Virus record (IMG/VR): IMGVR_UViG_3300036713_000142
Location: 1-33,044 of that record
DNA from: a virus
Lineage: Duplodnaviria; Caudoviricetes
Strand: one strand, 5' to 3'
DNA: 33,044 nucleotides
The notes under the pieces: generated by a model
The model's input: only the letters and a program-made list of their open reading frames with translations
What the model was told of the DNA's origin: nothing
Databases searched by the model: none
Position numbers and translations under genes: made by a program
In this document: piece by piece, positions 26,598 to 29,800 of the stretch
Layout: each line of letters starts with the position of its first letter
How positions within the stretch are numbered: position 1 is the stretch's first letter

Positions 26598-27650
26598 TCA
26601 ACCAGCCAGCAGCTCAATAGCAGCAGCAGGGTTCACCCAATCAGCACCCATAGCCATGCGACCAACGATGATGTCACCCTGATACATGGTCTTCACGTCA
26701 GAGCCAGTGGTCTGAATCTGAGGACCGATAGCTTCCACAACACCAGCTGCTTCCTTAGCATAGATAAGACCGCAGGAGTTGGAGAAGTCACCACCATAAT
26801 CATTGTTCTCACCAGGCACACGAGCAACGGTACCAGGAACCATGAAGGGCAAGTTGTTGGAGCGCCAGATCTTGATGCCAGCAATCTCATAGAGACCTTC
26901 ACCAGACTGAACACTACCAGCACTGTTACCGTAGTCACGGTTCAGAATGTTGGTATCAACCTGAGAGATCAGAGCGTAGTACTGACGAGGAGACATCACA
27001 GCATTACGACCTTGCTTGGGCACGTTCTTCTCATCGAGAATAGCAGCTGCTTCAAAGAAGGCATCCACCAGTGCTTGGGCATTGTACTCGTTACCAGCAC
27101 CAAGTTGGATCTGGCTACCACCAGGCTCAGGACCAGGAGCGGCAGAGATAGGATGAGCTTGACGTGCAGCCTTAGCGATCACACGGAAGATCTTTTTGTC
27201 GTAAGCTTCAGCCAGAGCATGACCGATCTTAGCAGAGATTTCCGAACGCAGACTGTAGTGAGCCAGGGTCTCATCAAGGTCATAGACGAAGGCGCTGGAG
27301 ATCAGCAGGTCGTCCATGACGATGGTCTTCTCAGCCACGGGAGGGTTGGAAGTACCCAGAATTGGAGTGCCAGGCTGGTGATAAGCAGCATCCATCCGAC
27401 CAGTGTAGATGAACTGAGCCGAACGACCGTTGCGAAGAGCACGGTTCATCACGGTGCCTTTAGCAATCGTAGCACTCTCATATGCCTTAATCATCTCGCC
27501 GGTAAACAGCTTGAGATAAGTAGCATACTTACTGTTGTAATCATTAATGTTATCAGTAAGACCAAGACCAGGAGTCTTGTTAATATTACCTGTTGCCGTC
27601 AGAGTAGTATTCGGCGGCACACCAGGATTTGCAGACCAAACAGAAGCCAT
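26598..27650 (-). CDS. major capsid protein (T7 gp10-like)
   Basis: LKLFTGE, GRSAQFIYTGR, DDLLIS and GHALAEAYD motifs. Confidence 0.96.
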   Translation of the reverse strand: MASVWSANPGVPPNTTLTATGNINKTPGLGLTDNINDYNSKYATYLKLFTGEMIKAYESATIAKGTVMNRALRNGRSAQFIYTGRMDAAYHQPGTPILGTSNPPVAEKTIVMDDLLISSAFVYDLDETLAHYSLRSEISAKIGHALAEAYDKKIFRVIAKAARQAHPISAAPGPEPGGSQIQLGAGNEYNAQALVDAFFEAAAILDEKNVPKQGRNAVMSPRQYYALISQVDTNILNRDYGNSAGSVQSGEGLYEIAGIKIWRSNNLPFMVPGTVARVPGENNDYGGDFSNSCGLIYAKEAAGVVEAIGPQIQTTGSDVKTMYQGDIIVGRMAMGADWVNPAAAIELLAG

Positions 27651-27787
27651 TGTAGTTAAAGAAAAGAGAAGTTATGTGAGTTTCTCTTTAAGCGCTTAAA
27701 GATATTAAGTTTTTATTTCTTCGGTAAATTCTTACGCTCACCGAACGCGTTCGGTATGAGGTGCCCGCCGTAGCAGATTCATACCAA

Positions 27788-27837
27788 TGGGTAAGGGAGG
27801 AATTGCACCTCCCAATGCCGCTTTTACGGACTACCCA
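27788..27837 (-). ncRNA. tRNA-like minihelix element
   Basis: GGGUAG...UUACCC acceptor-like stem stacked on GGAGG-UGCAAUU-CCUCC (5 bp plus a 7-nt loop), with one short intervening hairpin. Confidence 0.5.
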
Positions 27838-27845
27838 ATGTCCTT

Positions 27846-27908
27846 TTAGCGGACAATTGTTTTGTTGTACTTAACACCACGATAGGTGTAGGTAACTTGA
27901 ATAGACAT
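27846..27908 (-). CDS. DUF4278-like YRG peptide (20 aa, MSIQVTYTYRGVKYNKTIVR)
   Basis: Read manually. The YRGVKY motif lies directly downstream of the riboswitch-like fold. Confidence 0.8.
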   Translation of the reverse strand: MSIQVTYTYRGVKYNKTIVR

Positions 27909-27910
27909 AG

Positions 27911-27980
27911 TTCGTACCGATAAGCTCATGCGCGTTCCAGCCTTGAGCAACCCGTCCCACACGTGGGATGAACGTACGAA
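27911..27980 (-). ncRNA. glutamine-II (Downstream-peptide) riboswitch
   Basis: P1 CGUUC/GAACG, P2 UCCCAC/GUGGGA, pseudoknot GCUCA/UGAGC, and the CGUUCAUCC..GGACG..GGAACG signature, upstream of a YRG peptide. Confidence 0.8.
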
Positions 27981-27983
27981 ATA

Positions 27984-29039
27984 TTAACCAATTACCGGAG
28001 CACTATGTGTCGCCAAATCAAGTGGGAAGTTGTGAGCATTACGCTCATGCATAACTTCGAAACCAAGATTGGCACGATTAAGAATGTCAGCCCAAGTATT
28101 AACTACTTGACCTTGACTATCAATAATAGATTGATTGAAGTTAAGACCATTCAGGTTGAATGCCATGGTGCTTACTCCAAGCGCAGCAAACCAAATACCA
28201 ACCACAGGCCAAGCAGCGAGGAAGAAGTGAAGACTACGGCTGTTATTAAAGGAAGCGTACTGGAAGATGAGCCTACCAAAATAGCCGTGAGCAGCGACAA
28301 TATTATATGTCTCTTCTTCTTGTCCAAACTTGTAACCGTAGTTCTGGCTTTCTTGCTCGGTGGTTTCACGGACAAGAGACGAAGTGACAAGAGAACCGTG
28401 CATAGCACTGAAGAGTGACCCGCCAAATACTCCCGCAACACCAAGCATATGGAAGGGGTGCATGAGGATGTTATGTTCAGCTTGGAACACCAACATGTAG
28501 TTGAAGGTTCCCGAGATACCCAAAGGCATAGCGTCAGAGAACGACCCTTGCCCAAACGGGTAGACCAGGAAAACTGCGGAAGCCGCCGCAACGGGAGCTG
28601 AGTAAGCGACACAAATCCAAGGCCTCATTCCTAGTCGATAGCTAAGTTCCCACTCTCGTCCCATGTAAGCAAAGATGCCAATGAGAAAGTGGAAGACGAC
28701 GAGTTGGTAGGTCCCGCCATTGTAGAGCCATTCATCAAGTGAACCAGCTTCCCAAATTGGGTAGAAGTGTAGTCCGATGGCATTGCTGCTCGGAACGATG
28801 GCTCCCGATATAATATTGTTCCCGTACATAAGGGAGCCAGAGACGGGTTCACGTATTCCATCAATATCTGTTGGTGGTGCGGCAATGAAGCCGATAATAA
28901 AAGCTGTTGTAGCGACAAGCAAACACGGAATCATGATTGCGCCGAAATGTCCGACGTACAATCTATTGTTTGTGCTGGTTACCCAGCTCAGGTAATTATC
29001 CCAAATGTTTGAGCGCTGTTTTGTTAATACTGCGGTCAT
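27984..29039 (-). CDS. psbA: photosystem II reaction centre protein D1 (351 aa)
   Basis: [36 protein letters not shown] and [17 protein letters not shown] at 29039; no intron. Confidence 0.99.
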
Positions 29040-29355
29040 TGTAGAAATCAAAAACATCAAGTGCCTTATGGGCACGTCGATCTCCAAAATACGGCAGCAT
29101 CATATCAAGCAAACGGGTAACGTCTTTTTCATTTCCCACTTGCCATTTCCATGCGTCTTTAGTTTGGTGAGGACGACGCGGGCAATAAGTAATTTTATTA
29201 TTTATGCAGTTAGCCAATCGTGCAAATTTCATAAGAACATCACGATCTGTACTAACTAACTGAAGGTAGCAATAACCTTTTTTCTTACTAATGGAGATGG
29301 AACCTTCGCCCTCAAAGAGTCCAGACATCCATGCGGTATCCGCGAGTTGAGTCAT
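28996..29355 (-). CDS. single-motif LAGLIDADG-like endonuclease (119 aa)
   Basis: [15 protein letters not shown] motif followed by L.L.STD..VL, ..W.W.V and L...LPYF. Confidence 0.78.
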
Positions 29356-29357
29356 AT

Positions 29358-29654
29358 TTAATTAAGTCGTGTTACTTTTACAGGAGCCACTCCAGCACCC
29401 AGCATGCCAATGCGTTGTGCTGTTCCCTTGCTCAGATCTAGGTCTCTCCCGGGAATGAAGGGACCGCGATCTGTTACCCTAACTACTTCACATGTTTTGT
29501 AGCACACTTTAAGTCGTGTTCCAAATGGTAGAGATTTATGTGCAGCCGTTGGCTCCATCATATTATATCGTTCACCGTTTGCAGTACGGTTACCATGGAA
29601 TCCTGGACCATACCAGGATGCAATTACAGAGATAGTAGTTAGGATAGGAATCAT
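29358..29654 (-). CDS. RlpA-like double-psi beta-barrel lytic transglycosylase
   Basis: ASWYGPGFHG..TANGE..TAAHKSLPFGT..VRVTDRGPF..LDLS. Confidence 0.92.
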   Translation of the reverse strand: MIPILTTISVIASWYGPGFHGNRTANGERYNMMEPTAAHKSLPFGTRLKVCYKTCEVVRVTDRGPFIPGRDLDLSKGTAQRIGMLGAGVAPVKVTRLN

Positions 29655-29800
29655 TTCTTTTTAGCAGTTTTAGCAGCTCTTCGGAAGTTGGCAGCAGTAG
29701 GCGCACCTTTGCTACCGGGTTTCCGCATCTTCTCGCCGGAGCCCGCGGCGATTCTTTTCTTCTTGGCGTGGATGTTAGCGTAGAGACCTTGCTTAGCCAT
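29651..29800 (-). CDS. small basic cyanophage protein (49 aa, MAKQGLYANIHAKKKRIAAGSGEKMRKPGSKGAPTAANFRRAAKTAKKK)
   Basis: Read manually, with start/stop coupling at both ends. The GLYANIHAK motif is familiar from marine phages. Confidence 0.85.
   Translation of the reverse strand: MAKQGLYANIHAKKKRIAAGSGEKMRKPGSKGAPTAANFRRAAKTAKKK

Follow-up and report, generated by a model that had tools for sequence, protein, structure and literature searches.

A phage-borne glutamine-II-type riboswitch variant with a covarying helix over the start of a short YRG gene in T7-like cyanophages

What could a glutamine-sensing RNA control when it lies between a photosynthesis gene and the major capsid gene of a virus? 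The question is raised by IMG/VR record IMGVR_UViG_3300036713_000142, a T7-like cyanophage fragment that was analysed at its whole length of 33,044 nt (the window). On its minus strand, at positions 27,846 to 27,980, an original prediction had placed a glutamine-II (Downstream-peptide) riboswitch with an additional outer stem, followed by a 20-amino-acid (aa) peptide carrying the residues YRG, and had proposed that the phage senses host nitrogen status and either produces a regulator of nitrogen metabolism or tunes expression of the capsid gene. Judged from its sequence, the RNA is a phage-borne glutamine-II-type variant in front of a short YRG open reading frame (ORF), and not an ordinary member of the class. 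On balance, we lean towards reading this variant, together with a covarying outer helix over the 20-codon YRG gene, as a translational ON switch whose peptide would be made at high glutamine.

Aptamer core and class assignment

The minus strand reads as originally given, and the pairings 27974-70/27937-33, 27948-44/27928-24, and 27980-74/27917-11 were confirmed. The element was mapped onto the glutamine-II crystal numbering of PMC6698751 (PDB 6QN3); this and the other publications cited below were available in part, and statements about them refer to those parts. The 5′ strand of the pseudoknot (PK) helix, C1-C5, falls at 27970..27974, with C1 being a ligand contact in the crystal structure, and is followed on the same strand by the P1 hairpin (27955..27968), the linker strand C17-G18-G19-G20 (27951..27954), and P2 (27924..27948). 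P1, for which six base pairs and a 2-nt loop had been claimed, folds into five pairs (27968-64/27959-55) and a tetraloop, and two of its pairs show compensatory changes. The predicted P2 consists of two G-C pairs (G32:C43 and C33:G42), an AG/A internal loop, and the five pairs 27948-44/27928-24, with compensatory changes at three pairs, and encloses the loop U34-GGAACG-C41, which forms the PK with C1-C5. The ligand-contact bases C1, G18, C39, and G40 and the triple partner G2 are intact (27974, 27953, 27934, 27933, and 27973, respectively), and G35-A38 are retained too. Three near-invariant positions are changed, from C19:G41 to G19:C41, from A33:G42 to C33:G42, and from A20 to G20. The long-range 19:41 pairing, predicted between G27952 and C27932, is preserved with a polarity that is reversed relative to canonical glutamine-II and corresponds to that of type I. 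The A33:G42 pair is described as cis Watson-Crick, 99.5% conserved, and important (PMC6698751). This non-canonical core had been overlooked, as had the pairs G27941:C27930 and C27940:G27931 and the long-range pair itself.

The window has no Rfam match at gathering thresholds. In permissive mode, full-length matches below threshold are obtained for RF01739 (21.8 bits, cut-off 35) and RF01704 (18.7 bits, cut-off 33), with an E value of 0.025 each; covariance models, named in the original prediction as a means of checking it, thus align to the element without recognising it at gathering score. In a control, RF01704 was passed by all ten canonical phage loci (36.6-57.6 bits), whereas either model was passed by none of ten variant loci, so that failing Rfam is a trait of this subtype. 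The class membership originally claimed stands insofar as a glutamine-II-type aptamer precedes a YRG ORF; it does not extend to ordinary membership, and the element is not filed under RF01704 because three defining features fail. That the class was already known in cyanophages is borne out by the presence of P-SSP7 in the 2010 Downstream-peptide alignment.

With glutamine-II (RF01704, PDB 6QN3; PMC6698751, PMC6212724, PMC2864571), the element shares the P1-PK-P2 pseudoknot architecture, the intact bases listed above, and its place immediately ahead of a short YRG ORF; in P-SSP7, S-TIP37, S-CBP4, and others, this locus holds a canonical copy. It departs from that class in the three changed positions, in an RG/A internal loop in P2, and in its score of 18.7 bits against 33. 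With glutamine-I (glnA, RF01739, PDB 5DDP), which gives the slightly better score, it shares a CGG linker and a GAACGC end, to which G27952 and C27932 align as the G23-C60-type pair of that class. Unlike glutamine-I, it has neither the P3 three-way junction nor the E-loop, a part that the RF01739 alignment skips, and it has the type-II P2 pseudoknot. The glutamine pockets of the two types are described as virtually identical (PMC6698751).

The variation among relatives was examined in several scans. A viral scan in which positions 19 and 41 were both left free returned 120 loci, 94 of which had the element and a YRG ORF, and the 19:41 pair of these is C:G in 88, G:C in 6, and mismatched in none. 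About 1300 stored stretches are estimated for this loose pattern, the 94 of 120 sampled being real, and T7-like cyanophages commonly carry riboswitch-YRG cassettes. Scans specific to the variant yielded 42 viral loci, 44 metagenome loci (largely the same sequences), and nine loci of an intermediate form; across them, 36 distinct G19:C41 elements were found, 30 with C33:G42 and 6 that keep A33:G42. In an alignment of 24 variants, 98% of cells are paired and five P1/P2 pairs are changed on both sides, and in the compensatory-change test for P1/P2 none of 500 shuffles was as good on three of five measures.

The outer helix and the YRG gene

The outer stem, called P0 here, is formed by a 5′ arm UUCGUAC that includes C1 (27974..27980) and a 3′ arm GUACGAA (27911..27917), which occupies positions -9 to -3 before the AUG. 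It is present in both the minimum free energy and the centroid structures, and a predicted extension pairs 27984-27982 with 27909-27907 over the AUG itself. The proposed outer stem over the start region was confirmed, with covariation across variants. As the register of P0 shifts between loci, it was tested without alignment, by comparing own with swapped flanks. For 23 distinct flank pairs, comprising 22 variants and one mis-sorted canonical copy, own flanks reach -11.1 kcal/mol and swapped flanks -6.0 kcal/mol (0 of 10,000 permutations), with z below -2 in 21 of 23. When one representative of each of 14 flank families is used, the values are -9.2 and -5.2 kcal/mol (0 of 20,000) and the own partner is the best one in 6 of 14; an earlier in-frame ATG was taken for one locus and five intermediate loci, two of which fall in this test, and their P0 is thereby understated. 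In contrast, canonical phage copies show -5.3 against -4.8 kcal/mol (16 of 10,000), with z below -2 in 6 of 89, and no host copy among 64 reaches that level. A similar helix is therefore confined to a minority of canonical phage copies, S-TIP37 being among the borderline cases.

Across loci, the 3′ arm of P0 spans roughly -13 to +1. The distance from the end of P2 to P0 is 3 nt or less in 12 of 22 variants, and the inner 5′ partner of P0 adjoins C1 in most variants and is C1 itself in the window. In short-linker variants, the PK and the inner pairs of P0 are probably mutually exclusive, because C1 would sit at the distal end of P2 once the ligand-bound stack has formed. In the intermediate subtype (six loci), which has G19:C41 and retains A33:G42, P0 covers GGAG directly, at -10.6 to -16.7 kcal/mol, and this subtype is a plausible step from the canonical to the window form. 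A helix masking the start has been proposed for the gifB glutamine-I element of Synechocystis (PMC6212724), and for the glutamine-II class the authors of the crystal structure could only guess at the expression platform (PMC6698751); the variant supplies a concrete covarying start-masking helix together with natural compensatory versions of it. As a separate observation made by eye, the conserved 5′ flank of many canonical phage copies could pair with the P1 3′ strand and C17-G18, a possible anti-aptamer helix distinct from P0.

The predicted ORF, MSIQVTYTYRGVKYNKTIVR, is present on the minus strand at 27846..27908 (ATG at 27908, stop at 27848-46), and its codon pattern is one of coding-type conservation. 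Variability around the YRG residues peaks at the third codon position (0.41, against 0.20 and 0.24), and 18 variants show 649 synonymous and 299 non-synonymous codon differences, which are pairwise counts and not independent events. A tyrosine at +5, outside the selection pattern, is found in 83 of 83 stretches. The peptide carries one DUF4278-like module, sharing Y-R-G-x-x-Y with the small DUF4278 (PF14105) proteins and with the N-terminus of IF17 (GifB), whereas the host proteins behind the canonical switch mostly have two or three YRG modules. Among related phage peptides, 12 of 14 match DUF4278 below the cut-off, at E values of 0.0001-0.05. The window peptide has no Pfam match, the best relative scores 22.9 bits against a curated cut-off of 25.3, and none of the 15 tested reaches it. 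A search of the ESM Atlas with a 34-aa relative gave only leads below 0.9, with DUF4278 at 20% in one cluster.

The suggestion that the peptide regulates glutamine synthetase (GS) or PII found no support. DUF4278 is the N-terminal part of IF17 and is reported to be stabilising but dispensable for GS inactivation (PMC6316151), and the C-terminal part of IF17, with an arginine region reported to be needed for GS binding, appears to have no counterpart in the window peptide, which corresponds to the YRG module. PirA is described as absent from marine picocyanobacteria (PMC8092223). Because of these reports on IF17 and PirA, the peptide is read only as a single-module mimic of host YRG proteins.

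The proposed switch and its rivals

In the favoured ON switch, P0 would close a multiloop around P1 and P2 when no ligand is bound, and this helix, evidenced by covariation, is predicted to mask about -13 to +1. Glutamine and Mg2+ would then stabilise the PK helix, binding being expected from the crystal structure and the intact contact bases, in a proposed pocket whose long-range pair has type-I polarity. As the geometry suggests, C1-C5 would be drawn into the loop of P2 when the PK forms, and the innermost P0 pairs would be strained or peeled off, which would free the start. The peptide would probably act on a partner of the host's own nitrogen-replete YRG proteins, and it is likely to be produced only in a nitrogen-rich host. 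A host type-2 element was reported to be an ON switch in a reporter assay (PMC6212724).

A number of observations weigh against this switch. The element lies below both Rfam cut-offs. At -8.4 kcal/mol and with a z of -1.9, the P0 of the window is one of the weakest, and its type is one of the two among the 23 flank pairs that do not reach z below -2. The P2-P0 linker of the window, at 6 nt, is long enough for P0 to partly coexist with the PK, and no clear Shine-Dalgarno sequence is found in the window. The opening of P0 by the PK is not reproduced by secondary-structure folding; blocking the core in a model at 25 °C leaves the probability that the start is unpaired at 0.28, as it was before. 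Two of the five covariation measures are no better than shuffles. In the alignment of 24 variants, the PK, G19:C41, and the two G-C pairs are invariant because the search pattern fixed them, so that they provide no evidence, and the PK strands, complementary yet invariant, have no covariation support. Moreover, the G:C flip at 19:41 may be a single evolutionary event, and the loss of A33:G42 could alter affinity.

A terminating ribosome unwinds several bases beyond its stop codon. One alternative looks to the upstream gene, psbA in the window, whose terminating ribosomes would mainly open P0 while the glutamine-bound fold blocks its re-closing, either as an AND gate or as plain coupling. The psbA stop codon (27986-27984) lies three bases from the outer stem, where a 4-nt gap had been claimed, and nine bases from C1, and its last base joins the predicted P0 extension. 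The same spacing recurs: of 22 variant flanks examined, 20 had an identifiable upstream ORF, and in 19 of these the stop is 8-10 nt from C1, whatever the upstream gene (psbA, scaffold, a short lysine-rich gene, and others), and the gap is filled by the 5′ arm of P0. In addition, the same model opens the start region when the 5′ flank, rather than the core, is blocked (0.53). However, 41 of 82 canonical phage copies have an 8-10 nt gap as well, although P0 is missing from most of them, so that the gap may reflect genome compaction; coupling alone also leaves the invariant pocket unexplained. Ribosome gating is a serious but unproven rival, to which we give a rather low probability. A combination of the two ideas can be entertained only tentatively, namely a phage-only hybrid with a type-I pocket on a type-II scaffold, acting as an AND gate in which the ribosome opens the anti-start helix and glutamine holds it open, so that a single-module DUF4278 effector would be made only in infected cells that are nitrogen-replete and actively translating. 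If this were true, the glutamine-II class would gain its first defined expression platform in the mobile cassette.

The tuning of the capsid gene, as originally suggested, could be imagined through translation of the short ORF, which would remodel the capsid leader past its stop and relay nitrogen status to the capsid gene. In most loci the cassette lies in the late region near the capsid gene, and in many a T-arm-like hairpin starts about 5-15 nt past the peptide stop. Nevertheless, in 28 of 79 distinct loci the peptide and the capsid gene are separated by an estimated distance of more than 230 nt, which reaches about 1.1 kb and often contains inserted ORFs; in two loci the cassette precedes psbA; and the capsid gene is accompanied by a leader of its own that stays with it. 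Direct capsid control is therefore unlikely. A 23-nt indel directly after the window's peptide stop also speaks against this idea, as does the conservation of the Y-R-G-x-x-Y residues, which a pure leader would not need. We consider capsid tuning improbable.

The core itself leaves room for a different objection, that with the changes at 19, 20, 33, and 41 the RNA ceased to be a glutamine sensor, either through altered ligand specificity or affinity or because the fold no longer depends on a ligand. Three near-invariant RF01704 positions do differ, G19 would by analogy stack on the ligand side chain, and no variant locus of the ten passed either Rfam model. Set against this, all hydrogen-bonding bases are intact, the glutamine-I pocket, which is described as virtually identical, natively has G-C at this pair, and the family of the regulated ORF is unchanged; the loss of glutamine sensing thus has little probability in our judgement. 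The fold energy of the 81 nt alone, which is non-significant (z -1.57, with 12 of 200 shuffles equally good), and the sub-threshold Rfam scores would also fit a chance resemblance or a decayed relic. This reading, which we regard as very improbable, is largely refuted by the covariation data: compensatory changes and an intact ORF are seen in dozens of different copies, on three capsid lineages. In addition, the window contains one match to a degenerate core pattern for which chance alone would give 0.01.

Distribution and genomic surroundings

The variant was met in phage context only. Among 48 variant loci, a T7-like structural gene is found in the fetched flank of 45, and at least one window gene was matched in all. 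The genomes covered in the host searches were single representatives of species or a sampled part of a family, and the result is accordingly to be read as "not found". A strict variant pattern gave three matches in genomes, all of them chance coding sequence, and a looser one gave 15, of which 14 lack a YRG ORF and one duplicates a phage-context element. With a covariance model, 6 of 151 family genomes match at 22-25 bits (the window scores 74.7), and all six lack the variant core. When 401 genomes were scanned with a loose pattern, matches stayed at about control level, and among the matches listed, judged by eye, one was convincing (L482); this match in a genome assembly, which belongs to the intermediate subtype, is surrounded by portal, scaffold, capsid, and tail genes of T7-like type. 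A very permissive viral pattern amounted to noise, with a single match, on an already known contig, among the 99 of 120 loci that were scored. At least 25 phage records contain a canonical copy. In a quick tree built from 73 capsid sequences, the variant label needs four changes, three of which are forced by well-supported branches, and the canonical S-CBP4 falls within the variants; the cassette probably passes from phage to phage at this position. As a side observation, eight genomes of the cyanobacterial family that was searched contain sequences resembling type-I (glnA) aptamers with an E-loop, even though the form described for picocyanobacteria is type II.

The elements of Melnitz (PMC9004378) and S-CREM1 (PMC9964418) are also phage-encoded glutamine aptamers; they are reported to be of the glnA type, in myoviruses and with other neighbours, and the available parts of these papers mention no YRG peptide or outer helix. 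In the available part of the 2010 alignment, strings diagnostic of C41 occur 0 times in the Downstream-peptide motif, against 260 canonical ones, a count in which gap placement could hide some copies and in which a fourth string is represented by 2 of 10 passages. The literature comparison took in PMC7885011, PMC12379486, PMC6395800, PMC5393176, PMC4646655, and 10.1101/2025.10.05.680603; in this set, which held few subscription papers and neither Ames and Breaker 2011, Ren 2015, nor the supplements of PMC6698751 and PMC6212724, no account of the variant or the outer helix was found. The variant appears as a riboswitch subfamily overlooked by Rfam cut-offs, even in the cultured S-CBP3, where RNA and peptide are both unannotated. 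Whether podoviruses read host nitrogen status, and what DUF4278 modules do, become directly testable questions.

The closest annotated records of the window are the T7-like Synechococcus phages S-CBP3, S-CBP4, and S-TIP37, with S-CBP3 as the nearest isolate. Its minus-strand order is portal, scaffold, hli, several small genes, psbA, the riboswitch element, the major capsid gene, and tail genes. The psbA (D1) gene is taken from the ORF list at 27984..29036 (minus strand; Pfam Photo_RC, E 4.5e-88), with the ATG at 29036 assumed as its start, and the T7-like major capsid gene lies at 26598..27650 on the same strand (Pfam Gp10A-like, E 4.3e-76). RNA-library contigs span the riboswitch element, one without any differences, which shows presence only, as these contigs are uninformative on level, strand, or transcript ends. 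Scans of the window for sigma-70 promoters and terminators stayed at shuffle level, and no tRNA was found in it.

The capsid gene is preceded by a structured leader at 27650..27825 on the minus strand, separate from the riboswitch, with a T-arm-like hairpin, a covarying multi-stem, and long palindromes. Its fold has a z of -3.83, and it has no Rfam match near threshold; a RAGATH-30 candidate at 27683-27741 (20.9 bits, cut-off 59.5) was taken as chance. A T-loop pattern occurs in 44 of 79 loci, with an alternative hairpin in many others, and a stem with an internal loop, in which 10 of 15 predicted pairs are compensatory among 29 sequences, is followed by palindromic hairpins. The leader may be an undescribed RNA motif, for example a processing signal or a translational operator. 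The window's two longest perfect palindromes (18 and 16 nt) both lie in it, at 27685-27702 and 27740-27755, and relatives have different palindromes at similar places, possibly as protein-binding sites or self-complementary loops. The 23-nt indel after the peptide stop (about 27823-27845) is missing in close relatives and in two RNA-library contigs, and with it the region folds into a tRNA-like shape without an anticodon arm. A look-alike of a Syn5-like phage promoter after the peptide stop was rejected, since it belongs to this indel, which close relatives lack.

Directly upstream of psbA, a free-standing LAGLIDADG endonuclease-like ORF is found at 28996-29355 on the minus strand (Pfam LAGLIDADG_3, E 8.7e-07); one RNA-library contig skips 29003-29356, which is consistent with a mobile homing gene. 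It is neighboured on the same strand by an RlpA-like DPBB_1 protein at 29358-29654 (E 2.6e-24) and by a 49-aa lysine-rich ORF at 29651-29800, relatives of which lie directly upstream of the riboswitch in S-CBP3 and at several other loci.
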